From assembly GCA_033762295.1 (NCBI GenBank), contig JANRLW010000048.1, positions 1 through 39,034 on the forward strand: a DNA stretch of 39,034 nucleotides, in the 5' to 3' direction. The notes under the pieces are model-generated. The model saw only the letters and a program-made list of their open reading frames with translations. It did not search any database and had not been told where the DNA came from. The stretch is from Capsulimonadales bacterium (GTDB taxonomy: Bacteria; Armatimonadota; Armatimonadia; Armatimonadales; Armatimonadaceae). This document shows, one piece after another, positions 1,933 to 33,100 of the stretch. Each line of letters opens with the position of its first letter. The stretch's first letter is position 1. The position numbers and the translations under genes were made by a program.

Positions 1933-4563
1933 ATGCCCTCCGTGCCCCTTGAAAAACTGACTCCCATGCTCCGCCAGTACGTGCAGATGAAGGAGGAGCG
2001 TCCCGACGTTCTCCTTCTGATGCGGGTCGGCGACTTCTTCGAGGCGTACGGCGACGACGCCGAGCTGATCGCCCGCGAACTCAATATCACCCTCACCGGG
2101 CGGGAGATCCAGGGAATGGCCGAACGCTACCCGATGGCCGGCGTTCCGCACCATGCTCTCGAACGCTACCTCGCGCGGCTCGTCAAGCGCGGCCACAAGG
2201 TCGCCGTCTGCGATCAGGTGGAGGACCCCAAGCAGGCCAAGGGTCTGGTCAAACGGCAGGTCACGCGCGTCGTCACTCCCGGTACGCTGGTCGAGGACGC
2301 CCTGCTCGACGCTCGCTCCAACAACTATCTGGTCGCCGCCGTTCTCGGTTCGCCCGGTCCCCGGTTGCTTTGCGGCGTCGGGGTCATCGATGTCTCCACC
2401 GGCGAATTTCTGGTCACCGAACTGACCGAAGGGGCGCACCTGGGACGGGTACTGGAGGAGATCAACCGGCTGAACCCCTCGGAATGCCTGGTTCCGGAGG
2501 ATATGGAGGATCTGGCGGAAGCGATCCGGGGGGCCTGTCCGGCGACGCTCACCCGGATCGGTCGTCGGGACCTGCCCCGGTCGGCCTATGATTTTCTGCT
2601 CGACCATTTCGGCACCGCGACCCTGCGCGGATTCGGCTGCGACGACTACACCGCCGGACTCGACGCCGCCGCCGCCCTGCTCGTTTATGTCAAATCCACC
2701 CATATGTCGGCGGTCCCTCACATTCGGACCCTGGCGACCTACTCCGCCGGGGACGGGATGGCGCTGGACGCCCCGACCCGACGAAACCTGGAACTGACGC
2801 AGGGCATTTACGACCATGCGCGCGGCAAGTCCCTGCTGGCGGTCCTCGATCAAACGCTGACCTCGATGGGCGGTCGTCTGCTGAAAAAGTGGCTGGACTC
2901 GCCGTTGCTGTCCGTCGAACGTATCGAACGTCGGCTGGACGCGGTGGAAGCGTTCTTCGAAGACCCGATCGTCCGTGGCGACGTCCGGGATACGTTGCGG
3001 GTGGTCGCGGATCTGGAACGCCTGATCGCCCGTATCTCCACCGGCACCGCCAACGCTCGCGACCTGGTCGCCCTGCGCCTTTCGCTGCTCCAGGTTCCCG
3101 AAGTGGCCGAACGCGCCGCGACGATCGACAACGAGGCGATCCGCTCGCTCTGCGTCGAACTCGACCCCCTGACCGAGGTGACGGACCTGATCGGACGCGC
3201 CATCGCCGCGGAACCGCCGCTCTCCGTGCGGGAGGGCGGCCTGATCCGCGACGGGTACGACGCCGAACTCGACGAACTGCGCGGGCTGTCCCGGGGCGGG
3301 AAGTCGTGGATCGCCGAACGGGAGATGCAGGAACGGGAGCGAACCGGCATCAAATCGCTGAAGGTCGGTTTCAACTCCGTCTTCGGCTACTACATCGAAG
3401 TGACCAGAGCCAACCTGTCGCTCGTCCCGAAGGACTACATCCGGAAGCAGACGACCGCACAGGGCGAACGCTATATCACGCCCGACCTCAAGGAGATGGA
3501 GGCCCGTATTCTGGGCGCGGAGGAGAAGAGCACCGCGCGGGAGTACGACCTGTTCTGCGGCGTTCGCGATGCGGTCGCCGCCCTCGCCCCGGCGGTGCTG
3601 CAGGTCGCGCAGGCGATCGCTCGAATCGATGTCGTCGCCGCTCTGGCGGAGGTCGCCGCGACCAACCGCTATGTCCGTCCGGTCGTCGATACCGGCTCCG
3701 TCCTGGAAATCAAGGCCGGTCGGCATCCGGTCGTGGAAAAGCTCGCCGAAGGCGCGGTGTTCATTCCCAACGATACGCTTCTTGATGATGGCCCGAATCA
3801 GGTACATGTCATCACCGGACCGAACTCCTCGGGAAAATCCACCGTCCTGCGACAGGTCGCGCTGATCACGCTGCTCGCCCAGGTCGGTTCGTTCGTCCCG
3901 GCGGATGCCGCGCGCATCGGAATCGTCGATCGCATCTTCACCCGGGTCGGGGCGCATGACGACCTGGCCGCAGGGCAATCGACATTCATGGTCGAAATGA
4001 CCGAGACCGCCAATATCCTGAACAATGCCACCGAACGCAGTCTGGTCATCCTCGATGAGATCGGGCGCGGCACCTCGACCTTCGACGGCGTTTCGATCGC
4101 CTGGGCGGTGGCCGAATTCCTTGCCGGACGCGGCTGCAAGACGCTGTTCGCCACCCACTACCATCTCCTGAACGATCTGGAAAAATCGCATCCCAATGTC
4201 CGCAACTTCCGGATCGCGGTCAAGGAGACCAACGACCGGATCATCTGGCTTCGTAAGATCGTCGCCGGAGGAACCGACAAGAGCTACGGTATCCAGGTCG
4301 CGCGGATGGCCGGTCTCCCCCCGGAGGTCGTCGCGCGCGCCGGAGAGATCCTGACCGACCTGGAGCGGAACGACCGGGCCAAACGCGACCTGGCGCGACA
4401 CGCCTCCGTTTCCGCGCGGACGCAAAAGATGCAGATGACGCTGTTCGAAGCCGAACCGCACCCGGTACTGGAACGCCTCAAAACGCTCGACCTGACCGTT
4501 CTCTCCCCGATCGAAGCCCTCAACCTCCTGTACGGGATGCAGCGAGAGATCAAAGAGAAGTGA
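1933..4563 (+). CDS. mutS: DNA mismatch repair protein MutS (MutS1)
   Basis: N-terminal TPMLRQY...GDFFE mismatch-binding motif, Walker A TGPNSSGKST, STFMVEM, ILDEIGRGTS, FATHY, SYGIQVA, and C-terminal clamp-binding-like QMTLF; 876 aa. Confidence 0.98.
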   Translation: MPSVPLEKLTPMLRQYVQMKEERPDVLLLMRVGDFFEAYGDDAELIARELNITLTGREIQGMAERYPMAGVPHHALERYLARLVKRGHKVAVCDQVEDPKQAKGLVKRQVTRVVTPGTLVEDALLDARSNNYLVAAVLGSPGPRLLCGVGVIDVSTGEFLVTELTEGAHLGRVLEEINRLNPSECLVPEDMEDLAEAIRGACPATLTRIGRRDLPRSAYDFLLDHFGTATLRGFGCDDYTAGLDAAAALLVYVKSTHMSAVPHIRTLATYSAGDGMALDAPTRRNLELTQGIYDHARGKSLLAVLDQTLTSMGGRLLKKWLDSPLLSVERIERRLDAVEAFFEDPIVRGDVRDTLRVVADLERLIARISTGTANARDLVALRLSLLQVPEVAERAATIDNEAIRSLCVELDPLTEVTDLIGRAIAAEPPLSVREGGLIRDGYDAELDELRGLSRGGKSWIAEREMQERERTGIKSLKVGFNSVFGYYIEVTRANLSLVPKDYIRKQTTAQGERYITPDLKEMEARILGAEEKSTAREYDLFCGVRDAVAALAPAVLQVAQAIARIDVVAALAEVAATNRYVRPVVDTGSVLEIKAGRHPVVEKLAEGAVFIPNDTLLDDGPNQVHVITGPNSSGKSTVLRQVALITLLAQVGSFVPADAARIGIVDRIFTRVGAHDDLAAGQSTFMVEMTETANILNNATERSLVILDEIGRGTSTFDGVSIAWAVAEFLAGRGCKTLFATHYHLLNDLEKSHPNVRNFRIAVKETNDRIIWLRKIVAGGTDKSYGIQVARMAGLPPEVVARAGEILTDLERNDRAKRDLARHASVSARTQKMQMTLFEAEPHPVLERLKTLDLTVLSPIEALNLLYGMQREIKEK

Positions 4564-4755
4564 CCGCCGGGTCTGCGGATGCCCCGGCGTCCGCAGCATC
4601 CGTGGCGTCCGTGGCGCGTTTCGTGAGAGGTTCCGGCAGGGTCCGGAAGGAGGGAACCCGACCGTCGTGGAAATCTGTAACCGGATTCCCGCAGGGTCCG
4701 GGGCGCATCCCGACCGGTCGGGACGATTTTCGGAAGCGGATAGGATGATACGACG

Positions 4756-6141
4756 ATGTTGCAAGGCGTTGAGCGTTTGGTGGACCTGGTGGGCTTTCGG
4801 CAGGAAGCGTTGAGAACCGGAGCGGAACTTCCGGCGGCGATCCGGGAGGGCGATATCGAGGCGTTGAGCCGGAGCGCGGGGCATTTCGCCGGCACGGCGC
4901 GGGACGGGCAGACGGTTCGGCTGGCGCGGACGATCGGCCTGCCGTTGCGGTATTTTGTCGCCAAGATGTTCCATGGGCCGTTCCTGGTGGTCGCGGACCG
5001 GATCGATACCCTGTACGCATGGTGTCAGCAGGAAAAGATCGGCTGGCAGTTCGACCCGCTGTACACCCGGATGGTCCCGGCGCACTACCTGATCGAGATT
5101 GATCAGATCGGCTGTCCCGACCCGTCGCCGCGTTACCATCGCTTCTTCAACCCGCCGGTGGCCGAAGGCTCGACGGATATCGAGCCGCTGGGCGCGGCCT
5201 ATGCCCGGGCAACCGTCGATGCCCTCACCCGATGGATTTCCGGCGTTCCGGACGGCGAACCGATCGCCGTCGCCTTCTCCGGCGGCATCGATAGTACCTC
5301 CGTCCTGTTGCTCGCCCGCCATGTCCTGACGACCCTCGGACGGGACCCCGGTTGCCTGCGGGCGTTCACGCTCGATCTGGGCGGCGGAGCGGATGTCCGT
5401 CAGGCGGAAGCCGTCGTCCGCGAACTCGGTCTGGCCGATCAATGGGAGGTCATCGCCCCGCCGAACGCCCGTGTCGATCCGGAGGAAGCCATCCGGGTCA
5501 TCGAGGACTACCACCCGCTCGATGTCGAGTGCGCGGCGGTCGCTCTGTGCCTCCTTCGCGGAATTCGCGAAACATATCCGAACCTGAAGTACCTCCTCGA
5601 CGGCGACGGCGGCGACGAAAACCTGAAGGACTACCCGCTGGAGGACTCGGACCTGACCCTGTCGAGCGTCCTCCGCAACCCGTTCCTCTATCAGGAGGGG
5701 TGGGGGATCGACGCGATCAAGCATAGTCAGACCTATTCCGGCGGTTTGTCCCGCGCCTATGTCCGAACGTACGCCCCGGCCCGTCGTTTCGGCTTCGACG
5801 CCTTCTCCCCGTACACCGACCGCGCCGCCATCGCGGCCGCGGTGGCGATCCCCTTTGAGACGGTTCTGAACGGAAGCGTCGAACGGCTCTACACGCTGAA
5901 GGCCGACGTGGTCCGCGCCGGAGTGGAGCAGGTGACCGGCATCACGATGCCGACCCCGGTCAAACGCCGGTTCCAGGACGGGGTCGGCGGCGCCTCGTAC
6001 CGCCAGTGGCGTGTCAGCAAGGCGTGGTGCCGACAGGTGTTCCTACGCCAGTGGGAGGAGCGACTGCGGGTGGCATGGGACCCGCAGGGCGAACGGCTCT
6101 CCGGCAACGATCTGTCCCGCCCGATCCCCACCGCCCGATGA
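4756..6141 (+). CDS. Asparagine synthetase-like ATP-dependent ligase (PP-loop) with degenerate N-terminal glutaminase region
   Basis: AFSGGIDS PP-loop and LDGDGGDE (cf. SGEGADE of AsnB), late SPY and KRRFQDG motifs. No N-terminal Cys nucleophile. Confidence 0.85.
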   Translation: MLQGVERLVDLVGFRQEALRTGAELPAAIREGDIEALSRSAGHFAGTARDGQTVRLARTIGLPLRYFVAKMFHGPFLVVADRIDTLYAWCQQEKIGWQFDPLYTRMVPAHYLIEIDQIGCPDPSPRYHRFFNPPVAEGSTDIEPLGAAYARATVDALTRWISGVPDGEPIAVAFSGGIDSTSVLLLARHVLTTLGRDPGCLRAFTLDLGGGADVRQAEAVVRELGLADQWEVIAPPNARVDPEEAIRVIEDYHPLDVECAAVALCLLRGIRETYPNLKYLLDGDGGDENLKDYPLEDSDLTLSSVLRNPFLYQEGWGIDAIKHSQTYSGGLSRAYVRTYAPARRFGFDAFSPYTDRAAIAAAVAIPFETVLNGSVERLYTLKADVVRAGVEQVTGITMPTPVKRRFQDGVGGASYRQWRVSKAWCRQVFLRQWEERLRVAWDPQGERLSGNDLSRPIPTAR

Positions 6142-7142
6142 ACCCGTTTCCCCGAACTCCGCTCCCTCTGTTGCCGTCGCGGGTCTACCCGACACAACCG
6201 GGGGCGCGGTCCCACTGGATCGAGACGCTACGCGGTCCGAAGAACGTGGTCAACGCCTCCCTGCCATACGCCTATCTCTGGGAGGAGGAGACCGGTCCGG
6301 ACGGATCGCCCGTCGCCACGGCGACCGTCTTTCTGACGAATCGGGAATGCCCTTACCTCTGCCTGATGTGCGACCTCTGGCGCAATACGCTGGACGAACC
6401 GGTGGCGCCGGGCGCGATCGCCGCGCAGATTCGGCTGGCACTGGCGGACCTGCCCCCTGCCCGGAACGTCAAACTGTATAACTCCGGCAGTTTTTTCGAT
6501 CCCAAAGCCATTCCGACCGGGGATTACGCGGAAATCGCCGAAGCCATCTCCGGTTTCGAGCGAGTGATCGTCGAATGCCACCCCCTTCTGATCGGCGAGC
6601 GCACCCTCACCTTTCGGGACAGGCTGAAGGGTCGACTGGAAGTCGCGATCGGACTGGAAACCGTCCATCCCGAAGCGCTGAATCGTCTTAACAAACGGTT
6701 TACCCCGGACGATTTTCGACGGGCGGCGCGTTTCCTCACGGAAAATGGGATGGATCTGCGGGTGTTCCTTCTGGTCGGCGCACCGTTTCTGAACCGGGAG
6801 GAGAGCCGATACTGGACGGAACGTTCGCTGGAGAGTGCCTTTGACGCGGGCGCGACCGTTTGCTGTCTGATTCCGGTCCGTGGCGGCAACGGCGCGATGG
6901 AAGCCCTGGCCGAAGCGGGGGAGTTTCATCCGCCGTCGCTGAACGCTCCGGAGGCCGCGCAGGAGTACGGCCTGCGTCTGAACGCCGGGCGGGTCTTCTC
7001 CGACACCTGGGATATCGAGCGGTTCTTCACCTGCCGCTGCAGCCGCGAACGGGCGCAACGGCTGGAGCAAATGAACCGGGAACAGCGTATCCCGCCACCG
7101 GTCGTCTGCTCCGTCTGCGATGAAAAGGAAGACCGGGAATGA
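6138..7142 (+). CDS. Radical SAM protein resembling the archaeosine RaSEA/TIGR01210 family
   Basis: CPYLCLMC (CxxxCxxC), KLYNSGSFFD, VIVECHP and EVAIGLET. ATG overlaps the upstream stop codon (ATGA at 6138-6141). Extra C-terminal CRC...CSVC cysteines. Confidence 0.85.
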   Translation: MNPFPRTPLPLLPSRVYPTQPGARSHWIETLRGPKNVVNASLPYAYLWEEETGPDGSPVATATVFLTNRECPYLCLMCDLWRNTLDEPVAPGAIAAQIRLALADLPPARNVKLYNSGSFFDPKAIPTGDYAEIAEAISGFERVIVECHPLLIGERTLTFRDRLKGRLEVAIGLETVHPEALNRLNKRFTPDDFRRAARFLTENGMDLRVFLLVGAPFLNREESRYWTERSLESAFDAGATVCCLIPVRGGNGAMEALAEAGEFHPPSLNAPEAAQEYGLRLNAGRVFSDTWDIERFFTCRCSRERAQRLEQMNREQRIPPPVVCSVCDEKEDRE

Positions 7143-8740
7143 CACCGGAATACGATCTGGCTGTGGTCGGTTCGGGTTTCGGCGGATCGCTGCTGGCAAT
7201 GATCGCCCGCCGTCTCGGACGAACGGTCCTGCTTCTCGAAAAGGGAAAACATCCTCGTTTCGCCATCGGCGAATCGACGTCGCCGCTCGCCAACCTGCTC
7301 ATCGAGGAGATGGCGCATCGCTACGACCTTCCGAACCTGCTGCCGCTGACCTCGTTCGGCCCGTGGCAGCGAACCTTCCCCGAGATCGTCTGCGGATTGA
7401 AGCGCGGGTTCACCTACTACGGGCAGACCGCGAACGAGGCGTATCGCGACTCCGCCGACCGCACCCGGCAGCTGCTGGTCGCGGCCAGTCCGAACGACGA
7501 ACTCGCCGACACGCACTGGCTCCGTTCGGACGTGGACGCGTTCCTGTTGCGGGAAGCGGTGGCGGCGGGCGCGGACTACCGGGACGAGGCCCACGTCGAA
7601 CCGCCGACCCGCGACGGTCGGGGGGCCTGGCTTCTGCGCTGGCGGACGGGCGGCGGAGGCGCGGAGACCGGTGCGCGCGCCCGGCTGATCGTCGATGCGA
7701 CCGGCCCGCGCGGCTGGCTCAGCCGGGCGTTCGACATCCCGGAAAAGCCGTTCTGCGACTATCCCGGAACGCAGGCTATGTTCGGGCATTTTCGCGGGGT
7801 TGCCCGCTGCGATGAGATGCCCGAATACGCGACGCCGGGCGAAACGCCGCCTTACCCGCCCGATGATGCCGCGCTGCATCATGTGTTCGACGGTGGCTGG
7901 ATGTGGGTCCTGCGCTTCGGCAACGGCGTGACCAGCGCCGGGTTCGCGCTGCGGGACGACCTGGCCGATAGGCTGGGACTGCGGGACGGCGAGGCGGGCT
8001 GGCAACGGCTGATGGAACGCTTCCCGACCGTCGGCGCGCAGTTCGCCCGGATCGAGCCGCTGTTTCCGCTGATCTACCAGCCGCGTCTCTCCTATCGCGC
8101 AGCGGGCGCAGCCGGGGACGGATGGGCGTTGCTGCCGTCCGCCGCCGCGTTCATCGATCCGCTGTTCAGCACCGGTATCCCCCTGACGCTTCTCGGCATC
8201 GAACGGCTGGCACGGATACTGGAGGCAGAAACATCGGGAAAGAACCTTGCCGGGCTGTTGACGGAGTACGGCGCGACGACACTGGCCGAGGTCGATGCGA
8301 CGGCGGACTTTATCGGGGGCTGTTACGCCGCCATGCACCGGTTCCCCCTCTTCGCCGCCTATTCCCGGTTCTACTTCGCCGCCGCCAGTTTCAGCGAAAT
8401 GACGCGCCGCCTGGGGAAGCGGGTGCCGGTCGGACGGTTTCTGGCCTCCGATCACCCGACCTTCGGCGCGGCGCTGCGCGAGGGTTCCCGCTGGCTCCGG
8501 CAGCACGGACGAACGGCGGACGAGTCGGAGCGGGCGGCGTTCGACCGATGGGTGAATCAATCCGTCGACGTCCTGAATATCGCCGGTCTGTGCGCTCCGG
8601 GGAAACGCAACTGGTACGGCGTCGATCTGGCGGACGTGGTCACCGGGGCGCACAAACTCGGTTTCACGCCGGAAGAGATGCGGGCCGTGCTCGCCGACGC
8701 CCCCTGGACCGGCGGCGGTCCCCTTCCGGCCGGACCCTGA
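7139..8740 (+). CDS. Flavin-dependent halogenase (tryptophan-halogenase superfamily)
   Basis: VVGSGFGG FAD motif, HPRFAIGES, candidate catalytic Lys in GLKRGF, DATG, WMWVL (WxWxI-type motif) and FIDPLFSTG. ATGA overlap with the radical SAM gene. Confidence 0.85.
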   Translation: MTPEYDLAVVGSGFGGSLLAMIARRLGRTVLLLEKGKHPRFAIGESTSPLANLLIEEMAHRYDLPNLLPLTSFGPWQRTFPEIVCGLKRGFTYYGQTANEAYRDSADRTRQLLVAASPNDELADTHWLRSDVDAFLLREAVAAGADYRDEAHVEPPTRDGRGAWLLRWRTGGGGAETGARARLIVDATGPRGWLSRAFDIPEKPFCDYPGTQAMFGHFRGVARCDEMPEYATPGETPPYPPDDAALHHVFDGGWMWVLRFGNGVTSAGFALRDDLADRLGLRDGEAGWQRLMERFPTVGAQFARIEPLFPLIYQPRLSYRAAGAAGDGWALLPSAAAFIDPLFSTGIPLTLLGIERLARILEAETSGKNLAGLLTEYGATTLAEVDATADFIGGCYAAMHRFPLFAAYSRFYFAAASFSEMTRRLGKRVPVGRFLASDHPTFGAALREGSRWLRQHGRTADESERAAFDRWVNQSVDVLNIAGLCAPGKRNWYGVDLADVVTGAHKLGFTPEEMRAVLADAPWTGGGPLPAGP

Positions 8741-8743
8741 CGG

Positions 8744-10513
8744 TTATTCGTTCGGGAAGAGGCCGATGGTGCTGCCGTGGATATGGAACCCGATACGCGT
8801 GATATCGCTGACGTCGTCCTGGTCGCCGAACATGTCGTTGCTGACGATCGGCGCATGGCGGAACCGCGCCTGCCGGATCAGTTCGTCGTCGGCGGACGTC
8901 CCGGCGGGCACTTCCCGGACGATATCCCGGTCGACCAGTTGACGAAACCCCGCCCGGTCATCGACATGACGCCCCAGGTTGGCATCGGCGATCATCAGCA
9001 CCGGGAAAAAGCCGGCCCGGAGGAGAAAATCGCGCATCCGGCGCAGGTGCAGCGTCCGCGGAACGGATGTCAGGGCGAGCGGGTCCGGGTTGAACCGGGC
9101 CACGTTGGACGCATCGACCAGAATCGGCGCGGTGACCGTCCGCAGAAAGGGTTCGACGGTCGCCGGTTCCAGGGCGGCCACGGTCTCCAGAAGCGCGTCC
9201 GCGCGGCGATTTTCCGCCTCGCCCGCCGCCCGTAACGCCGCCACTCCCTGGCGCACGTTCCGCACCATGTCCGCCTCGCCGGACTCGACCGCCTGCACCA
9301 GACGACGGGGCGTGACCGGCATGCTGTTGAACGTCGGCAACAAAACCGGCTGATCCGGCCCGATCTGCGTCGTCACGCCCGAAATTTCCAGCAGGTCCTT
9401 GCCTGCGCTTCCGAGCAGTTCGCCCAGCCGCTGATAAGCGATGCGAGATCGAAGGCGCAACTGCCGGAACAGGGAGGCGACTCGCGCCTCGACGCCCGTG
9501 CGGCGCGCCAGCGCGACCAGTCGACGGAGCGGTTCGCCATCGGTTTTGCGGAGGTTTTTCGCCTCGCTCAGGAAACGCAGGGCGACTTCGGCGGCGACGA
9601 GGACCTCGCCCCCATCGAGCAGGGCCGGAATCGCCAGCCGACTCTGCTCCTCCCCGGCGGCGGTCTGCCCCTGACCGTAAAGAGCCGCGGCATAGAGAGC
9701 ATGGGTTCGGCCCCGCCCCGCGCTGTCCTCACGGGCGGCGTCGGCATTCAGCGCCTCCCGGCACAGGTCGATGACCGCGCCGTACCGGGCGCGTTTCAAC
9801 AGGCGCTCCGCTCCCTCGGCCAGCAGAGAGGCGCGTGGAACGATCGACGGGGCGGGCAACGGCTCGGCGAGACCGGACGGCGCGGGCTCGACCACGGTCG
9901 TGACGACGGCTTTACGCTCTCTCCCCTCGTCACGACGTTCCTCCCGGCGCAACTGGTGGCGCAGTCGCGCCTTTTCCTCCTCCGCCTGATGCAGGGCGTC
10001 CTGCGCCTGCGCCAGAGTCTGTCGGGCGAGGTCCCGCTCCTGCTCCGCGCGGGCCAGAGCGGCCTTTGTCTCGCGCAGTTCCATCTCGCGGGTGAGGACG
10101 GTCGCCTTTCGCTTTTCCAGGGCATCCCGGAGGATGGCGACCTCCTTCCGGAGATTCTCGATCTCGCGGGCCGGGGTGGCGGGCGGGGTTTTGACGGGAG
10201 CGGCGGCGGCGGGAGTCGGCTTCGGGGCGAGCGAGCGCAGCGATTCCGCGAATTTTGCCTGTTTCCCCGCCTCTTCGACGATACGACCGATCACCCGGGG
10301 GTTTTTCAGCGCGTCACCGGACGGACGAAACCCGGCGAAAATCCGGTTGGCCCGCGCCCTGTCTTCGTTGAGGAGAGCGAGCAGGTCCCGCGCCGCCAGT
10401 CCGGCCAGATGCTGTCGCCACTCCTCCGGGGACAACGACGCGACGACGGTTTCCGATCCCGGATTCGCCGGACTATCGTCCGGCCGGGTCGCCTCTTGTA
10501 AATCGGAGGTCAT
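8744..10513 (-). CDS. Coiled-coil/TPR-like protein with C-terminal NYN/PIN (Zc3h12a-like) ribonuclease domain
   Basis: ILVDASNVA, IADAN, ADDELI and IVSNDMF supply the acidic residues of PIN/NYN nucleases. Central heptad-rich region. Confidence 0.7.
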   Translation of the reverse strand: MTSDLQEATRPDDSPANPGSETVVASLSPEEWRQHLAGLAARDLLALLNEDRARANRIFAGFRPSGDALKNPRVIGRIVEEAGKQAKFAESLRSLAPKPTPAAAAPVKTPPATPAREIENLRKEVAILRDALEKRKATVLTREMELRETKAALARAEQERDLARQTLAQAQDALHQAEEEKARLRHQLRREERRDEGRERKAVVTTVVEPAPSGLAEPLPAPSIVPRASLLAEGAERLLKRARYGAVIDLCREALNADAAREDSAGRGRTHALYAAALYGQGQTAAGEEQSRLAIPALLDGGEVLVAAEVALRFLSEAKNLRKTDGEPLRRLVALARRTGVEARVASLFRQLRLRSRIAYQRLGELLGSAGKDLLEISGVTTQIGPDQPVLLPTFNSMPVTPRRLVQAVESGEADMVRNVRQGVAALRAAGEAENRRADALLETVAALEPATVEPFLRTVTAPILVDASNVARFNPDPLALTSVPRTLHLRRMRDFLLRAGFFPVLMIADANLGRHVDDRAGFRQLVDRDIVREVPAGTSADDELIRQARFRHAPIVSNDMFGDQDDVSDITRIGFHIHGSTIGLFPNE

Positions 10514-10581: not shown

Positions 10582-11712
10582 TCAGGCACCGGAAAGTACC
10601 GGTAACGGACGCATCGCCGAACCGGGGCGCAGCGCCGAGCGCTTCAGTTGCCCGCATGCCGCCGCGATCCGATGCCCCCGCTCCTGCCGCTGGGTGATGG
10701 TAACTCCGTAAGAAGCGACGATCTCCCGGAACCGGCGGGACGCCTCCGCCGTCGGCCGCCGGTACCGCGCCGCGACCTCGGTCGTGTTATAGGGAATCGT
10801 GTTCACGGAGACCAGCGGTTGATTTTGCAGCAGTTGCCCGAGTTCGTGGGCTTCCTTCTCCGTATCGTTGACGCCGGAGAGCAGCACGTACTCGAACGTG
10901 ATCCGTCGGCGGGTGCGATTCACATAATGGCGGCACGCCTCCATCAGGCGAGCGATCGGATACCGGTCGTTGAGCGGGACCAGTTCGGAGCGGAGAGTAT
11001 CGTTCGGGGCGTGCAGCGAGACGGCCAGAGTGATCTGCAGATCCTCCTCGGCCAGCTTTTCGATGTTGGGAACGACGCCGACCGTGGACAGCGTGATATG
11101 GCGCATCGCGATCCCGACCTCCCGGTTGAGCAGGCCAACGGCTTTCAGGACGTTCGGGTAGTTCAGCAGCGGTTCGCCCATGCCCATCAGCACGACATGG
11201 GTAATGCGGTTGTCGCGATGCTGCGACTGCATCAGCAGTACCTGATCGACGATCTCTCCGGCGGTCAGATTGCGGGCCAGTCCCTCGGTGCCGGTGGCGC
11301 AGAACGAGCAGGCCATCGGGCAGCCGACCTGCGAGGAGATGCAGACCGAGGTGCGTCCCTCATAGGGCAGAAAGACGGACTCGATCACCTCATCATCGGG
11401 CATCGTCAGGAGGTACTTGACCGTACCGTCGGGCGCGGCGGACGCCGATCGGAGGCGGCACGGCGCCAGCGGAAACCCGGCGGCCATCTCCTCCTTCAGC
11501 GTGCGCGGCAGGTCGGTAATCTCCTCCCACTCGCGGGCAAATCGCTGGTAAAGGGCCTGCGCCAGCTGCTTGCCCCGAAAGGCGGGCGCACCCCGATCGA
11601 GGAACAGAGCGACCAGTTCCTCGGTCGTCTTCCCGACGAGCGTCTCCGTCCCGCGACGGTTCCCCGTCGTTTCGACCTCCGTGATGGTTTCTAAAGTTTC
11701 TGCCCCGGACAT
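10582..11712 (-). CDS. rlmN: 23S rRNA (A2503-C2)/tRNA methyltransferase RlmN
   Basis: DGTVKYL, CISSQVGCPMACSFCATG, MGMGEPLLN, SLHAPND, FEYVLL and IAAACGQL. Confidence 0.96.
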   Translation of the reverse strand: MSGAETLETITEVETTGNRRGTETLVGKTTEELVALFLDRGAPAFRGKQLAQALYQRFAREWEEITDLPRTLKEEMAAGFPLAPCRLRSASAAPDGTVKYLLTMPDDEVIESVFLPYEGRTSVCISSQVGCPMACSFCATGTEGLARNLTAGEIVDQVLLMQSQHRDNRITHVVLMGMGEPLLNYPNVLKAVGLLNREVGIAMRHITLSTVGVVPNIEKLAEEDLQITLAVSLHAPNDTLRSELVPLNDRYPIARLMEACRHYVNRTRRRITFEYVLLSGVNDTEKEAHELGQLLQNQPLVSVNTIPYNTTEVAARYRRPTAEASRRFREIVASYGVTITQRQERGHRIAAACGQLKRSALRPGSAMRPLPVLSGA

Positions 11713-11739: not shown

Positions 11740-12696
11740 TCAAGCGCCAGCGGCGGTCAGGCGGGCGACGACTTCGGCGGCGGTCGGAAGGTCGCGGATA
11801 TGCGCGACGGAGGTGCCGGCGTACAGGCACATCTCCTCGATGCGGCCGGTCATACCGATTCGCGGCGCGGTGTCCTCGTAACGGTAGATCGGTTCACCGT
11901 TCGTCGTATGCGCGAGGACGTCCCCCTCGCCGGGACGACGTCCGACCGGCGGGCTGCCCGCCGCCTCCCATTCGCGTAGCGTCCGGTTTCGCAGTACCCG
12001 GTGGGCGGCATAGGGCCAGCCTCCGTCGAAACAGACGGTCAGGGCCGTATCGTCCGCGGTGGCGGCGACCAGGGCGGCCTTATACTCCGGATGGGCGCGG
12101 CTTTCCTGAGTGGCGACAAACCGGGTGCCGCACATGACCGCCGCCGCCCCGGCGTCGAGGTAACGGCGCACCTGACCGGCGGTTGCGATCCCTCCCGCCG
12201 CGACGACCGGAACCGCCCCGGCCAGAGCCAGCACACCGGGCAACAGAGCATCCAGGGAAGAGGTTGCCTGAACGTGCCCCCCGGCCTCGCTCCCCTGGGC
12301 GATCAGGAAGTCCGCGCCGGACGCGACCGCTCGACGCGCCCCCTCCCCGGAGGTCACCTGCACACCGACCGCCGCCCCCGCGCGATGGCAGCGATCGGTA
12401 AACGGCGCGGCGTCACCCCACGAAAAAGTGATCACCGGCACGCCCGAATCCAGGGCGACATCGAGCGAGCGGGGTTCGAAATGGAGCGCGAAATTCACCT
12501 GAAACGGCGCATCGGTCCGGGCGCGAACGTCGGCGATCGCTTCCCGGGCCGTTTCCGGTTCGGTCCAGGTCAGGCCCAGGGCGCCGAGCGCCCCGGCTTC
12601 CGAGACGGCGGCACAGAGTTCCGGCCCGGCGACGCTGCCGGTCGGCGCCTGAAGCAGGCGAACATGTAGAATTATTTCGCTTAATTGCCTCGTCAT
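11740..12696 (-). CDS. Nitronate monooxygenase family FMN-dependent oxidoreductase
   Basis: LQAP, AAVSEAGALG, AQGSEAGGH, VVAAGGI, GTRFVATQES and YAG motifs. Confidence 0.9.
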   Translation of the reverse strand: MTRQLSEIILHVRLLQAPTGSVAGPELCAAVSEAGALGALGLTWTEPETAREAIADVRARTDAPFQVNFALHFEPRSLDVALDSGVPVITFSWGDAAPFTDRCHRAGAAVGVQVTSGEGARRAVASGADFLIAQGSEAGGHVQATSSLDALLPGVLALAGAVPVVAAGGIATAGQVRRYLDAGAAAVMCGTRFVATQESRAHPEYKAALVAATADDTALTVCFDGGWPYAAHRVLRNRTLREWEAAGSPPVGRRPGEGDVLAHTTNGEPIYRYEDTAPRIGMTGRIEEMCLYAGTSVAHIRDLPTAAEVVARLTAAGA

Positions 12697-14999: not shown

Positions 15000-16049
15000 T
15001 CAAAACATCGACCGGCGAACCTCAGAAGTGACTAACTCCGTCAGTGAGGCGACATAACGATCCAGGGAAGCATGCTCCGTTACCCAGGCGCGTCCCGCGC
15101 GTTCGAGACGGGCGGTCGCCTCCGGGTCCGTCAGAAGCGTTCGCAGGACCGAAGCGAGCGCATCGGCGTCGCCGGCCGGGACCGTTTGCGCGGCGATCGT
15201 ATAGTCGGCGATTCCGGGCGTCTCCGTCACGATGGTCGGACGGCCGACCGCCATGGCCTCCAGCAGCGCGGTCGATCCGGCGGCATACCGCGTCCCCGCC
15301 TCCAGCGGCACGACCGCCGCCGTCGCTCCCCGGTAAAGCTCCCGGAGCGTCCCCCAGTCGATGGCCCCACGCCTCTCGACATTCGGAGGAACGCGTAACG
15401 GTCCCGTTCGATCGCCCGTCCAGGCGCTTCCGGCGACCAGTATACAGCGGTACTCCGGCATTTTTTCGAGGGCGGTCATCAGGGTGGCGTAATCCCGTCG
15501 TTCCTTCCCGACCGCCACCAGATACGGCCTCCCCTCCTCCGGACGCGCTGCTACGGGGACGGCCTCCGTTACGGTCTCCGGTTCGGCGGGACGCCAGAAA
15601 AGGGTATCGGCGTGGTGATGCCATCGGACAATTCGCTCCGGCGGCACTCGCGCCTCGTTCTCCAGATACCGATGCTGTTCTCCGCTCAATACGACGATAC
15701 GCGAGAACCGGGACAACACTCCGGTTTGTCGCTGCAGGGTCCGTTTACGTGGCGAGGACAGGTGGTGCGCGATCAACAGGTGCGGGCGGCGGTGGCGGTC
15801 GAGCAGCGCCAGCGGCAACGCGACCTTCTCGGACAGGGACAGAAACAGCGTCTCGCGCGGCATCCGCCATGCGGCGAACGCCTGACGGAAATCCAGCGAC
15901 GTCGCCGCTTCCAGTCGCGCCCACGCGCCTCGTCCGCCGGGCGGATAAAGGATTTCGCCGCCCAGAATGCGAGCGGTTTCGATAAAATCGACTCTCGGGC
16001 CGAACGCCGACGCTCCGTGCCGCACGGACGGGAGCAGGACGACTCTCAC
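15000..16049 (-). CDS. Glycosyltransferase family 4 (GT-B)
   Basis: AVGKERRDY and AAGSTALLEAMAVGRPTIVT motifs. Probable GTG start at 16049, just after the araB stop codon. Confidence 0.85.
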   Translation of the reverse strand: MRVVLLPSVRHGASAFGPRVDFIETARILGGEILYPPGGRGAWARLEAATSLDFRQAFAAWRMPRETLFLSLSEKVALPLALLDRHRRPHLLIAHHLSSPRKRTLQRQTGVLSRFSRIVVLSGEQHRYLENEARVPPERIVRWHHHADTLFWRPAEPETVTEAVPVAARPEEGRPYLVAVGKERRDYATLMTALEKMPEYRCILVAGSAWTGDRTGPLRVPPNVERRGAIDWGTLRELYRGATAAVVPLEAGTRYAAGSTALLEAMAVGRPTIVTETPGIADYTIAAQTVPAGDADALASVLRTLLTDPEATARLERAGRAWVTEHASLDRYVASLTELVTSEVRRSMF

Positions 16050-16063
16050 CGGGCCGTGCTCAC

Positions 16064-17740
16064 TCAGCCGCGAACGCGATCCCGGATCTCGATCAGCCGC
16101 TTCATGACGTGGTACAGGCTTCCCTGCCATTCGGCGACGCCGAACGCGTCATGGAGATCGCGATAGAGCGCGTACAGTTCCTCATAAACGGCCACCGCGT
16201 CGGTCTCCGGTCGGAAAACGCTCTCCTTCAGATGGGTCATCGCCTTTTCGGCGGTCGCGAAATCGGGGAAGACGCCACCGACGACCGCCGCGGCACAGGC
16301 CGAGCCGAGGGCGCAGGTCTGGGCGGATGCGGAGATGCGGATCGGTCGCGCCAGCACATCGGCATAGATCTGCATGGCGACCGGGTTCTTCTCCGCGATG
16401 CCGCCGCAGCAGAGCACCTGTTCGACCGTGACCCCGTACTCCTCCCAGCGTTCGACAATCGCGCGTGCGCCGAACGCCGTCGCCTCCAGCAGTGCGCGAT
16501 AGATTTCGGCCGGCGCGGTCGCCAGGGTCTGTCCGAGGATCAGTCCGGTCAGTCGTTGATCGACCAGCACCGTCCGGTTTCCGTTGTTCCAGTCCAGAGC
16601 GAGCAGACCGGACTCGCCCGGCCTCAGTTTTGCCGCTCCGGCGGTCAGTTCCTCGTGGGTGCGGTGGCCGCCGAACTGCGCGACCCACCAGTTGAACAGA
16701 TCGCCGACGGCGGACTGACCGGCTTCCATGCTGAAGTAGTCGGGAATGACGGCCTCCGGCGCGATACCGCACAGTCCGGGGATATCCGGCAGGTTCTGCG
16801 TCAGCGGGGCGATCATGATATCGCAGGTGGAGGTTCCCATGATCTTGACCAGAGCGCCCGGCCCGATGCCGCAACCGACCGCGCCCAGATGCGCGTCCAG
16901 CGCGCCGACCGCTACCGGGATTCCGTACGGCAGTCCGGTCCGCCCGGCCCACTCGGGAGTCAGGGTGCCGGCGGCATGATCGACCGGTACCGGTTCGGGG
17001 GACAGGTCCAGGTGATCGCGCCAGCGGGCGAGATCGGGATGGAGTTCCGCCAGGAAATCACGATCCGGCCAGCCTCCCCACGCGGCATGGTACATTCCCT
17101 TATGTCCGGCCGTACACAGCCCGCGCCAGGGTCGCGCCTCCGTCCCGGTCAGGATCGCCGGGATCCAGTCGGCGATCTCGATCCACCCCGCCGCGGCCCG
17201 CGCCACTTCCGGAGCGACTTCGGCGCAGTGCCACATTTTCGCCCAGAACCACTCCGAGGAGTAGGTACCGCCGCATTTGGCCAGATACTCCGGATGTTTT
17301 TCACGAGCGGCCGCCGTCAGCGCGACCGCTTTCTCCACGGAGGTATGATCCTTCCAGAGCCAGGCCAGCGCATGAGGGTTGTCGGCGAACTCCGGATGCT
17401 CTCCGAGGGCGCGTCCGTGCGCATCGACCGGGAGCGGCGTGCTGCCGGTGGTATCGACGCCGATCCCGGCGACCTTCTCCGGCGAGAAGGCGGCGTCGTT
17501 CAGGCGGGCCTCCTCGATGGCCCGGCGTATCGCCGTCTCCGCGCCGGTCAGGTAGTCCCGTGGGTGTTGCCGCGCCAGTTCCGGGTCCCGCGGATCGTAG
17601 AGAACTCCGGCTTCCCCGTGCGGGTAGGCATAGACGAACGTTCCGACTTCGGCGCCGTCCGTCGTCCGCACCACCAGAGCGCGCACGGTATTGGTGCCGT
17701 AATCCAGACCGATCACATAGGCGGGAGCATCACTGGACAT
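16064..17740 (-). CDS. araB: Ribulokinase (FGGY family)
   Basis: IGLDYGT, GIGVDTTGST, WKDH, YSSEWFWAK, AGHKG, KIMGTSTC, EAGQSAVGD, LDWNNGNRT and GGIAEKN. Confidence 0.92.
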   Translation of the reverse strand: MSSDAPAYVIGLDYGTNTVRALVVRTTDGAEVGTFVYAYPHGEAGVLYDPRDPELARQHPRDYLTGAETAIRRAIEEARLNDAAFSPEKVAGIGVDTTGSTPLPVDAHGRALGEHPEFADNPHALAWLWKDHTSVEKAVALTAAAREKHPEYLAKCGGTYSSEWFWAKMWHCAEVAPEVARAAAGWIEIADWIPAILTGTEARPWRGLCTAGHKGMYHAAWGGWPDRDFLAELHPDLARWRDHLDLSPEPVPVDHAAGTLTPEWAGRTGLPYGIPVAVGALDAHLGAVGCGIGPGALVKIMGTSTCDIMIAPLTQNLPDIPGLCGIAPEAVIPDYFSMEAGQSAVGDLFNWWVAQFGGHRTHEELTAGAAKLRPGESGLLALDWNNGNRTVLVDQRLTGLILGQTLATAPAEIYRALLEATAFGARAIVERWEEYGVTVEQVLCCGGIAEKNPVAMQIYADVLARPIRISASAQTCALGSACAAAVVGGVFPDFATAEKAMTHLKESVFRPETDAVAVYEELYALYRDLHDAFGVAEWQGSLYHVMKRLIEIRDRVRG

Positions 17741-30126: not shown

Positions 30127-33100
30127 ATGACACGTTCGGAAAAAAGGCAAAGCGTAATGACCAACGTGATCTCCGCAACAGGAGACACCGGAATCCACGG
30201 TTCCGTTGCTTCGGAGCCTGGTGAAACCCTTCCGAACACCGATCGGTTCCCCTCCCATGAGAGGAAAGGACCGGCCGGGTCGCTTTCGTCCGCCTCCCGT
30301 TCGAAGGGGTCCTCGTCGACGCAGGACTCTCTGCCCTTTACCTGGGAACAGGCTTTCGCCGCCACTGGCGACGGACTTCTGGTAATCGATCGTCACCGCC
30401 GGATACTTTATGGCAATCGTGTCGCGGAAGCCCTTTACGATCGTCCATCGGGCGGCCTGCACGGCCTGACATTCGATGATCTGTACCCTCCCTCGTTGAT
30501 GGGAACGGACCCGAACCCGCTCGACCTGCTTCTGGAGGCGCTCCGCCGCGACAACGGCCCGATCATCGAGGAGTTCCGTTGTCCGTTCAACCGGCGCTGG
30601 TACGAGACGCGAGTGCACCCCGTGCCCTTGCCGGGCGACAGCGGCGGACTGATCGTTATTCGGGATATCGATGCGCTTCGCTCGGCCCAGGATCGGTTCG
30701 AGCGTACCGTGACCGCGACCCGGGACGGCATCGCCGAGATCGACCATCTGCGTGACCGGGCCTACTTCTCCTCCCGGTGGCGCGAAATGACCGACTCGCA
30801 CGATCTTCCGGCTGAGGCGAACGAAGCGGAGCGGATCGCCTACTGGTGGCAACGCATCCATCCGGAGGATTTGCCACGGGTTCAAGCGCATCACGAGTGC
30901 TGGCGCTTCGGCAACGAGCCGTTCGACAGCATTACGTTCCGACTCCGCTTCCTCGACGACGACGGTTGCCCGTTCTACCGCTGGTTTATCGAGCGTGGGT
31001 ACGTTGAACGCGATGAGGAGGGTCAGCCGGTTCGCACCACCGGCGTCCTGACCGATATCACGCTTCAAAAAGAGACGGAATCGCTTCTGTCTTTTGAAAA
31101 AGCGCGATTCGAACGCGCGATGGACGCCGCCGACGAGGGGCTCTGGGAGTCCGACTTCACCATACCGACCGAGGATGGCGAAGGCGTCACCTACCGCTCT
31201 CCGGCCTGGAAAACGCTGCTGGGCGTGAACGACGGACCGCCTCCGCCCGACGACCCCTACTACCGCAAAGCGTTCGTGGAAAAACTTCATCCGGAGGACC
31301 GCCCCGGCTTCGCCCGGCTTCGCCATGACTGCATCTTCGGCGGCAAGCCCTTCCCCCGTATCGAATTCCGCCTCCTCCAGCCGGACGGCGCCTACCGCTG
31401 GTTCGTCATTCGCGGCAAAACGCACCGGGCGGCGGACGGCGAGTTGTTGCGTATCACCGGGGTTCTGGCCGACATTCACGACCGTAAGCAGGCGGAACTG
31501 GATCTGAAGGCCGCGCATGCGCGGTTCGAACGCGCCGTCGCGGCAACCCATGACGGCATCTGGGAACACGATTTCGTCCGTGGAGTCCACTACCGCTCCC
31601 CCCGTTGGAAGGAGATGGCGGATATCCCCGACGATATCCCCGACGACTTTCCTTCTCTCGAAACGGAGGAATGGCGGACCTTCTGGCAGCCACGGATTCA
31701 TCCCGAGGACTGGGAACAGGTGGAAACGCATCGGCGCGACCATATCGATCCGCACTCCTGGGTCGAACCGACGGAGTTTCGCCTGCGCCATCGTTCGGGG
31801 GAGTTTCGCTGGGTCCGGGAACGGTTCCGGGTCGAGCGGGACGAACAGGGTCATGTGCTGCGTCTGGTCGGTGTCATCGCCGATATTCACGACCGAAAGA
31901 CGGCCGAACTGGAACTGGCCTCGCGGGAACGCTTCCTGACCCAGGTCGCGCGCGCACTGCCGAACATCCTTTATGTCTATGATCGACGCAATCACTCCTC
32001 GGTCTACGTCAACGAACGGCTGGCCGATATCCTGGGCTACTCCGAGGAGGATCTGCGCACCACCACAGGCGGCATTCCGGAACTGATCCATCCCGACGAT
32101 CTGGAATCCTTCCACGAGCAGTCCGCCCGGATCGACGCTCTGGCGGACAACGAGTTCGCGATCCTCGAGTTCCGGGTCCGCCATAAGTACGGCGAATACC
32201 GATGGATACGCAACCGGATCGTTCCCTTCGGACGCGACGAAAACGGCGTCATCGTTCGGACGGTAGGCGTCGCCGAGGACATTACGGAGTTCAAGCGACA
32301 GGAATCGGTATCACGGGAAGCGACCGCGCGGTTCGAACGGGCGATCGAAGCCTCGCGTGACGCCGTCTGGGAGATGCATATCCGCTCCGTGACCGAACCG
32401 TCCCGGAACACCCTCTATCGATCGCCGCAGTTCTGGAAACTCTTCGGATTCGATTCGGTGCCCGAGGACAACATCGACCCGGTGACCGGCCGCTGGCCCG
32501 AGTTCGACGGCGACGATGTCTGGCAATCGCGCATCCATCCGGACGATTACGAACGGCTTCGAGCGTACCGCAACGGGGTATTCGACAGCGTCATCGGCAC
32601 GACCGAAACCGAGTATCGCATCCTTCGCAATGACGGCCAGTACCGCTGGATCAGTTCGCGTTCCCGTGTCGAGCGTGCCGCCGACGGCACCCCGTTCTAC
32701 CTGACCGGCGTCATCACCGATATTCACGACCGCAAGGAAGCCGAACAGCGGATTCGTCAGTCGGAAGCGCGTTATCGGACGCTGGTGGATTCCGTGCACC
32801 AGGGTGTCTGGCGAGCGGCCCCGGACGGACGCATCCTGTACTGCAACGACACGCTTTACGCCATGGTCCGTGGAGACGCCGACGATATCGGCGATAACGA
32901 GACCGCCATTCGCGCCTGGTCCGATCTGGTTCACCCGGAAGACCGTCCGGCGCTGGAAGACCGCTGGCGAACCTGCCGGGAGAGCGGAGCCATCTTCGAA
33001 GGGGAGTTCCGGCTGGCCACCGGCAGAGCGGACTGCTCCTATCGACGATGTTCGGTCCGGGCGGTGCCGGTGCGGGATGACCGGTCGGCGATCCGAGAGT

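Follow-up and report, generated by a model that had tools for sequence, protein, structure and literature searches.

Among the closest described systems, RaSEA is reported to act in complex with ArcS to turn preQ0-Lys into archaeosine (PMC11298593), QueL to regenerate preQ1 from queuine (10.1101/2023.12.05.570228) and YhcC/MnmL to strip the carboxymethyl group from cmnm5s2U (10.64898/2026.05.18.725915). In ammosamide biosynthesis, as described, nitrogen is left behind by first attaching an amino acid and then removing its carbon skeleton (AmmB3 and Amm14; PMC12715798). Mutation of K87 is reported to abolish the activity of the halogenase PltM (PMC6424973), and E3, E4 and E5 (DUF1702, UnbV/CRTAC1 and UnbU) are described as common to all enediyne cassettes (PMC4480864). 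Here we analyze contig JANRLW010000048.1 of a Capsulimonadales bacterium (assembly GCA_033762295.1), whose 39,034 nucleotides are called the window, and in particular its operon at 4756 to 8740, encoding an ATP-dependent ligase, a radical S-adenosylmethionine (SAM) enzyme and a flavin-dependent halogenase-like enzyme (the flavoenzyme), together called the trio. Judged from their sequences, these genes belong to a real pathway without a characterized match, each enzyme lying in a known superfamily and each failing its nearest characterized family. The core of the system is the ligase and the radical SAM enzyme, the trio is not the minimal unit, and the pair usually travels with a cell-envelope module. 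An earlier, sequence-only reading of this DNA knew of no characterized system with this combination, and we likewise found no description of a ligase/radical SAM/halogenase cluster in the literature within reach, which left out subscription papers and supplement tables. What is new here is that the co-occurrence was followed across genomes, that the partner module was located, scattered, in the host genome, that the resemblance to E4/E5 was tested by best matches and that a variant was found with a DAHP synthase and without a halogenase.

Conservation and layout of the operon

Among species-representative genomes we identified 393 loci related to the operon, and the best 80 of the 393 were kept as the first clade; the best relatives were labeled Chthonomonadales, Capsulimonadaceae and other Armatimonadota. 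All three genes were present in 62 of the 80 loci, in the same order and on the same strand, which is far beyond chance. Thirteen further loci harbored the ligase and the radical SAM enzyme, three the radical SAM enzyme and the flavoenzyme, and two neither partner, giving a ligase in 75 loci and a flavoenzyme in 65; several of the gaps are contig ends. Where the locus lacked a ligase, one was found elsewhere in the genome in 4 of 5 cases, while for the flavoenzyme this held for 3 of 10 genomes, and it was not found in 7 of the 10 metagenome-assembled genomes (MAGs) tested.

The same association was seen at the level of whole genomes. The host phylum (151 genomes) has a radical SAM orthologue in 25 genomes (9 weak matches of 34 dropped), a ligase in exactly the same 25, and a flavoenzyme orthologue in 25 (1 weak match of 26 dropped), 24 of them shared with the radical SAM enzyme. 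Here the co-occurrence of flavoenzyme and radical SAM enzyme persists when the genes are unlinked, some lying on another contig or 68 kb away. In a second phylum, that of the Acidobacteriaceae record L012 (171 genomes), the radical SAM orthologue was found in 13 genomes (G176, at 31% identity, was dropped), and the flavoenzyme adjoins it in 12 of these 13. The orthologue is rarer elsewhere, with 6 of 201 genomes in the phylum of L055 and 1 of 201 in the order of L060. The trio is also carried by a MAG (L002) that is assigned to Chthonomonas calidirosea, a cultured species. The conservation across phyla that the sequence-only reading had proposed to look for thus exists, the unit being conserved in at least five phyla, and it is nearly certain that the trio genes constitute one functional unit.

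The radical SAM enzyme had no match in a phage collection and two distant 30% matches, from an unrelated Streptomyces cluster, in a plasmid collection, where the ligase had none; these collections therefore give no sign of carriage by mobile elements. On the plasmid of Streptomyces sp. F8 (L092:11857-24684), a 30% relative heads a different cluster, of P450, SHMT-like, GT9, carbamoyltransferase and heptose genes.

Within the window, the genes are joined by ATGA stop/start overlaps on the forward strand, at 6138 to 6141 between the ligase and the radical SAM gene and at 7139 to 7142 between the latter and the flavoenzyme gene, as noticed earlier and now confirmed directly in the sequence. The bounds given earlier, an intergenic region of about 190 bp and a convergent gene, were confirmed as well: mutS ends at 4563, 192 bp (4564 to 4755, presumed to hold the promoter and the ribosome-binding region) separate it from the ligase start, and a 589-amino-acid (aa) gene on the reverse strand (8744 to 10513) ends 3 bp past the flavoenzyme stop. 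Since no conserved cluster was found for this convergent gene among the neighbors, it does not belong to the system. Its product has a coiled coil and no Pfam match, and by its motifs its C-terminus may resemble an NYN/PIN-type nuclease. For the radical SAM gene, 334 aa are counted from the ATG at 6138. The open frame reaches back to a GTG at 6006, but the alignment with most relatives begins only at residue 3 to 28 of the ATG product. The trio DNA has the GC content of its flanks (64 to 68%), and each gene is present in one copy in the host genome. Scans returned no sigma-70-like promoter site (0.5 expected) and 4 terminator-like sites (3.0 expected), and Rfam detected no riboswitch in the window or in three partner loci, a single tRNA being the sole match. 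As stated in the sequence-only reading, no nonribosomal peptide synthetase (NRPS), polyketide synthase (PKS), carrier protein or flavin reductase is encoded nearby, none being present among the 26 window proteins scanned; a flavin reductase gene sits on a separate contig, C52, of the host genome. The other genes of the window include mutS (1933 to 4563), rlmN (10582 to 11712), a gene for a nitronate-monooxygenase-family flavoprotein (11740 to 12696), glycosyltransferase and FGGY kinase genes (15000 to 17740) and, on the forward strand at 30127 to 36528, a gene for a 2,133-aa signaling protein with nine PAS_3 stretches, a GGDEF and an HD domain.

The three enzymes and their nearest families

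The enzyme classes assigned earlier proved right, with Asn_synthase (E 2e-13), Radical_SAM (E 2e-6) and Trp_halogenase (E 3e-11) domains and matching structures. The ligase (4756 to 6141, forward strand, 461 aa) has the AsnB/beta-lactam synthetase fold, with two domains and the PP-loop SGGxDS. The PP-loop SGGIDS (5278 to 5295) and the motifs DGDGGDEN and KRRFQ are conserved, while the family has a short N-terminal domain whose consensus is devoid of the N-terminal Cys. A model predicted from 67 sequences (pLDDT 83.9) had beta-lactam synthetase 1mc1 as its best Foldseek match (E 5e-14) and over its own length matched beta-lactam, asparagine and carbapenam synthetases (E 5e-14 to 1e-11); an Atlas search returned only Asn_synthase-type clusters. 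A glutamine-hydrolyzing AsnB was rejected on the missing N-terminal Cys and a TIGR01536 score of 44 bits against a cut-off of 267, and a lasso or macrolactam cyclase on an NF033561 score of 21 bits against 300. AsnB-family enzymes adenylate a carboxylate, which is then attacked by an amine. By analogy, the ligase should adenylate a carboxylate and accept an amine other than glutamine-derived ammonia.

The radical SAM enzyme (6138 to 7142, forward strand, 334 aa) is related to RaSEA (TIGR01210) and QueL. The CxxxCxxC motif (C71, C75 and C78; 6348 to 6371) is invariant in 78 sequences, four C-terminal cysteines (299, 301, 324 and 327) are kept in at least 90% of these relatives, and the model (pLDDT 95) matches radical SAM structures, with the partial TIM barrel of the superfamily. 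TIGR01210 is the best NCBIfam match and matches all 78 relatives, far ahead of any other family; TIGR01212 matches 29 of them. However, the score of 87 bits lies under the curated cut-off of 212.15, and the ArcS domain (DUF5591) was not found in the host genome (94% complete) by a search that was positive in three control archaea. The enzyme is thus not a RaSEA equivalog, and archaeosine synthesis is ruled out. QueL was the sole radical SAM enzyme found by sequence in the PDB, weakly (E 0.47), and in structure it ranked first (Z 17.1, rmsd 3.3 Å, 219 residues aligned), tied with HydE and BioB; a PDB profile search with alignment A2 gave no meaningful match. In a single record, P0259, an 896-aa protein, the radical SAM enzyme is continued by a CRTAC1/UnbV domain that has a signal-like stretch of its own, either as a fusion or as a read-through.

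The flavoenzyme (7139 to 8740, forward strand, 533 aa) has CtcP and PltM as its closest solved relatives (E ~1e-41), the next class following at 1e-20. It has the GxGxxG motif, and K88 (7400 to 7402), conserved in at least 95% of 60 sequences, aligns without gaps with the catalytic K87 of PltM. WxWxIP is a motif of flavin-dependent halogenases; the variant WMWVLRF is found at 7898 to 7918, and both tryptophans are conserved in the comparison (W.WvL.F in the family, WLWVIPF in PltM). The contacts of PltM with phloroglucinol are not kept, which excludes a PltM orthologue and, these contacts being polar, indicates that the substrate differs. The best NCBIfam match is QhpG, but the scores of 62 against a cut-off of 240 for QhpG, 39 against 400 for GoxB and 14 against 400 for LodB place it outside these maturase families. 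The flavoenzyme is therefore classified, by sequence, as a putative halogenase of the PltM/CtcP type, that is, of the class acting on free phenolic substrates.

A halogenase-free architecture and a cell-envelope module

A second clade was formed by 80 metagenome loci related to a Cytophagales radical SAM protein. The ligase was present in 64 of the 65 loci with more than 600 bp upstream, while the flavoenzyme was present in only 2 of the 51 with more than 1 kb downstream. These operons encode, in order, a LivK-type binding protein, a DAHP synthase, a second LivK-type binding protein, a large TPR/UnbV protein, a CRTAC1 protein, the ligase and the radical SAM enzyme; among 10 full-length loci, the large protein was found in 8, the DAHP synthase in 8, the binding protein in 9 and the halogenase in none. 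The DAHP synthase stands alone and scores 449 bits against a cut-off of 335, and its presence hints at an aromatic substrate. This layout recurs in a Bacteroidales record (L011), and the halogenase-free clade may thus be a branch of anaerobes, for which a halogenase that needs oxygen would be useless. Comparing both architectures, the constant elements are the ligase, the radical SAM enzyme, the large secreted protein, the CRTAC1 protein and a solute-binding protein. Two halogenase-free loci (L024:11510-20630 and L060:11289-20740) also encode a CRTAC1 protein, hydrazine-synthase alpha-like and beta/gamma-like heme proteins, a Rid-family protein and a LivK-type binding protein.

The sequence-only reading had taken the trio for a minimal pathway. 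This was not borne out, both because the halogenase is missing from nearly all of the 51 second-clade loci and was not found in most of the MAGs tested for it, and because the core pair co-occurs with an envelope module of five to six genes outside the window. The module consists of a secreted protein of 1,150 aa (the large protein) with TPR, FG-GAP and UnbV parts and a 440-aa C-terminal domain of its own, a membrane-anchored CRTAC1/UnbV protein, an UnbU/RnfD-like membrane protein and an SsuA/NMT1-type ABC importer. Neither Pfam, NCBIfam nor the PDB had a match for the C-terminal domain, and the Atlas clusters that it hit were all either unnamed or linked to UnbV. Invariant Cys, Trp and Tyr residues occur in the large protein. 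From open reading frames of at least 90 aa, called in both clades, we scanned 27 recurring neighbor clusters of the trio loci. The binding protein matches NMT1/THI5. The first-clade loci encode the C-terminal domain in 45 of 80 cases, the specific CRTAC1/UnbV protein in 42, the UnbU/RnfD-like protein in 43 and the specific NMT1/SsuA-type binding protein in 14, and L001 and L030 have all module genes, the trio and a methyltransferase gene in one co-directional run. The host genome has its module scattered over three other contigs, with the permease, the ATPase and the large protein on C41, the CRTAC1 and UnbU proteins on C30 and the binding protein on C117 (17020 to 18117), these orthologues being 45 to 74% identical.

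Throughout the host phylum, the large-protein domain occurs in 24 of the 25 trio genomes but in only 7 of the 126 others, the UnbU-like gene in 22 versus 5 and the binding protein in 21 versus 5. In the second phylum, the large protein was found in 13 of 13 radical SAM genomes and in 20 of 67 others, the latter being those examined among the 158 available. These counts include unpublished genomes, namely, G188 among the 13 positives and G213 among the 20 background genomes; a third, G311, had only a weak UnbU match and was left uncounted. In addition, the large protein was present in 5 of 5 further genomes whose trio locus lacked it.

DUF1559 pilin-like genes lie by the module in 7 of 8 loci but are background, since the host genome has 124 of them and the neighbors are only 25 to 34% alike; this genome also has at least 11 CRTAC1/UnbV paralogues. 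Directly after the binding-protein gene on C117 is an AhpD/CMD-like gene (L083:5421-6007, reverse strand) with an in-frame TGA (Cys-Phe-Tyr-TGA-Thr), which, from its context, probably encodes selenocysteine. The host genome has selA, and NCBIfam lists a CFYUT selenoprotein family. CMD genes adjoin the system in 7 of 80 loci.

The module also resembles part of the enediyne cassettes. With E4 and E5 queries from a Streptomyces enediyne PKS (PKSE) cassette, the CRTAC1-like gene on C30 was the best E4 match of 11 in the host genome (158 versus 111 bits), and its neighbor matched E5 (E 5e-8) in the same gene order. E3 (DUF1702) had no tblastn match in the host genome with two E3 proteins as queries, and a Pfam search was also empty, though its control was negative too; PKSE and thioesterase were absent from the recurring neighbors, the set searched for these instead of the whole genome. 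On the E3 queries and the recurring neighbors searched, the system is probably not an enediyne cluster. E3 to E5 reportedly make a di-iodinated tetrayne and have a role in iodination. A plasmid of Serratia proteamaculans (L095:1-12820) carries DUF1702, VCBS/UnbV and UnbU-like genes beside ketosynthase genes that, in the stretch shown, are not annotated as an enediyne PKSE.

A proposed pathway, its alternatives and known systems

Our preferred but tentative reading is that the trio is the cytoplasmic part of a larger small-molecule pathway in which a small aromatic acid would be halogenated, coupled to an amino acid, N-dealkylated to an amide and handled at the cell surface. Taken separately, a small molecule rather than a macromolecule is the likely product, and a ligate-then-cleave nitrogen transfer is somewhat favored, as is, to the same degree, an aromatic substrate, which would probably be shikimate-derived. 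First, the flavoenzyme would chlorinate or brominate an electron-rich, probably phenolic ring of the free substrate with FADH2 from an unlinked reductase. The ligase would then adenylate the carboxylate and, since it has no glutaminase site, join it to an amino acid, for example Lys or Gly, through the amine. Next, the radical SAM enzyme would take a hydrogen next to that nitrogen and break the C-N bond, the nitrogen staying on the product and the carbon skeleton being released; we propose this N-dealkylation because RaSEA, QueL and YhcC/MnmL are all described as removing a carbon skeleton from nitrogen. Finally, the product would cross the envelope and be modified, bound or re-imported by the module.

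Several findings weigh against this pathway. The known substrates of RaSEA, QueL and MnmL/YhcC are all nucleobase adducts and not free aromatic amides, and the lead of QueL is a tie, Foldseek placing Elp3 first and QueL 19th. The phloroglucinol contacts E49, S404 and N405 of PltM are replaced by L50, A416 and S417, and the DAHP synthase is present in only 2 of 80 first-clade loci. Moreover, the module is not obligatory: a profile search detected no radical SAM gene in five host-phylum genomes that have it, and in the second phylum close UnbU orthologues occur in only 6 of 13 radical SAM genomes and in 2 genomes without the enzyme. The large-protein family has a background of 30% in that phylum. 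Related genomes are also non-independent samples, and kinship inflates all co-occurrence contrasts.

Of the alternatives, the one that survives best, though we consider it unlikely, is that the system imports and processes a compound: the module would release or capture it from the environment, the ABC transporter would import it, the radical SAM enzyme would remove a side chain, in the manner of QueL in queuine salvage, and the compound would be rebuilt or detoxified by the ligase and the flavoenzyme. SsuA/NMT1-type systems are importers, among solved proteins QueL lies nearest to the radical SAM enzyme, and the module is more widespread than the trio, as the five genomes (two of them nearly closed) with the module and without the radical SAM enzyme indicate. 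This nested distribution, however, fits producers and scavengers equally well, and biosynthesis is indicated by the ATP-dependent ligase, by the halogenase and by the dedicated DAHP synthase.

It is less probable still that the trio matures a protein, installing a covalent cofactor or a cross-link in the secreted TPR/UnbV protein like QhpD/QhpG or LodB/GoxB. The large protein, with its invariant residues, is the most constant partner, and two halogenase-free loci have heme proteins of the hydrazine-synthase/MauG type, but of the genomes that have the large protein, 7 of 31 in the host phylum and 20 of 33 in the second lack the trio. Similarly, although QhpG is the best NCBIfam match of the flavoenzyme and GoxB and LodB also match, the QhpG score (62 against 240) is low and halogenases of free substrates match far better. 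Equally improbable is a role in nucleoside or deazapurine chemistry, in which the pair would modify or salvage a 7-deazaguanine or uridine derivative in tRNA, in DNA or as a free compound, with halogenation of the pyrrole. Such a role would agree with the nucleobase adducts on which RaSEA, QueL and MnmL/YhcC act, with the first place of the tRNA-acting Elp3 in Foldseek and with the NMT1/THI5 match of the binding protein. Against it stand the ArcS domain not found in the host genome (controls positive in three archaea), the 27 recurring neighbor clusters scanned, none of which held TGT or que genes, the secreted partners and the patchy distribution (25/151, 13/171, 6/201 and 1/201). That there is no single pathway, the halogenase and the envelope genes hitch-hiking beside a two-gene housekeeping unit, would fit the halogenase counts (2 of 51 loci in one clade, not found in 7 of 10 MAGs) and the partners that differ between clades but is very improbable, since co-occurrence persists unlinked and the halogenase adjoins the radical SAM gene in 12 of 13 second-phylum genomes.

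Returning to the preferred small-molecule pathway, a bolder and doubtful version is that the ligase and the radical SAM enzyme carry out a new, bacterial, non-tRNA two-step nitrogen transfer, that its halogenated aromatic product serves soil bacteria as a shared cofactor, metallophore or signal, that the E4/E5-like surface complex matures or uses this product and that the module-only genomes scavenge it. The trio pathway, at no fewer than 393 loci, occurs in Armatimonadota, Acidobacteriota, Planctomycetota, Verrucomicrobiota and Bacteroidota, and very little is known of the metabolites of these groups. If the proposed chemistry holds, C-N cleavage of the RaSEA/QueL type would reach beyond nucleosides, amides could be formed independently of glutamine, soil organohalogens would have a widespread biological source, and the relatives of enediyne E4/E5 would be placed in a simpler context, a PKS-free and E3-free setting in which to study their chemistry.

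Compared with known systems, the flavoenzyme shares with PltM (phloroglucinol halogenase) and CtcP (tetracycline 7-halogenase) the close match (E ~1e-41), the aligned catalytic Lys and the free-substrate phenolic class, but its phloroglucinol-binding residues differ, and no PKS or NRPS is among the recurring neighbors of the trio. The ligase has the fold, the PP-loop and the inactive N-terminal domain of beta-lactam synthetase, CarA and the lasso cyclases, at only about 20% identity and with a radical SAM enzyme as its constant partner; unlike lasso cyclases, it has no lasso peptidase or RRE among those neighbors. With QueL and MnmL/YhcC, the radical SAM enzyme would share the C-N cleavage, and it has a weak sequence match and a tied structural match to QueL, whereas identity is about 18 to 21%, the protein is extended at both termini by parts that include four conserved Cys, and queuosine-salvage or mnm genes are missing from the recurring neighbors. 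As in the enediyne cassettes, E4- and E5-like genes are adjacent on C30, but this pair is 27 to 29% identical to them and is accompanied by a TPR lipoprotein, an importer and the trio. Ammosamide biosynthesis has the same nitrogen-transfer logic, in a cluster described as including a flavin chlorinase and an AsnB-like gene, but is said to use PEARLs, a scaffold peptide and an oxidoreductase (PMC12715798). Finally, ArcS-RaSEA of Euryarchaeota likewise combines a ligating enzyme with a TIGR01210-type radical SAM enzyme in a proposed logic of adding an amino acid and then cleaving it (PMC11298593), ArcS being TGT-like, whereas the ligase described here has the AsnB fold and the trio has, in addition, a halogenase and envelope partners.

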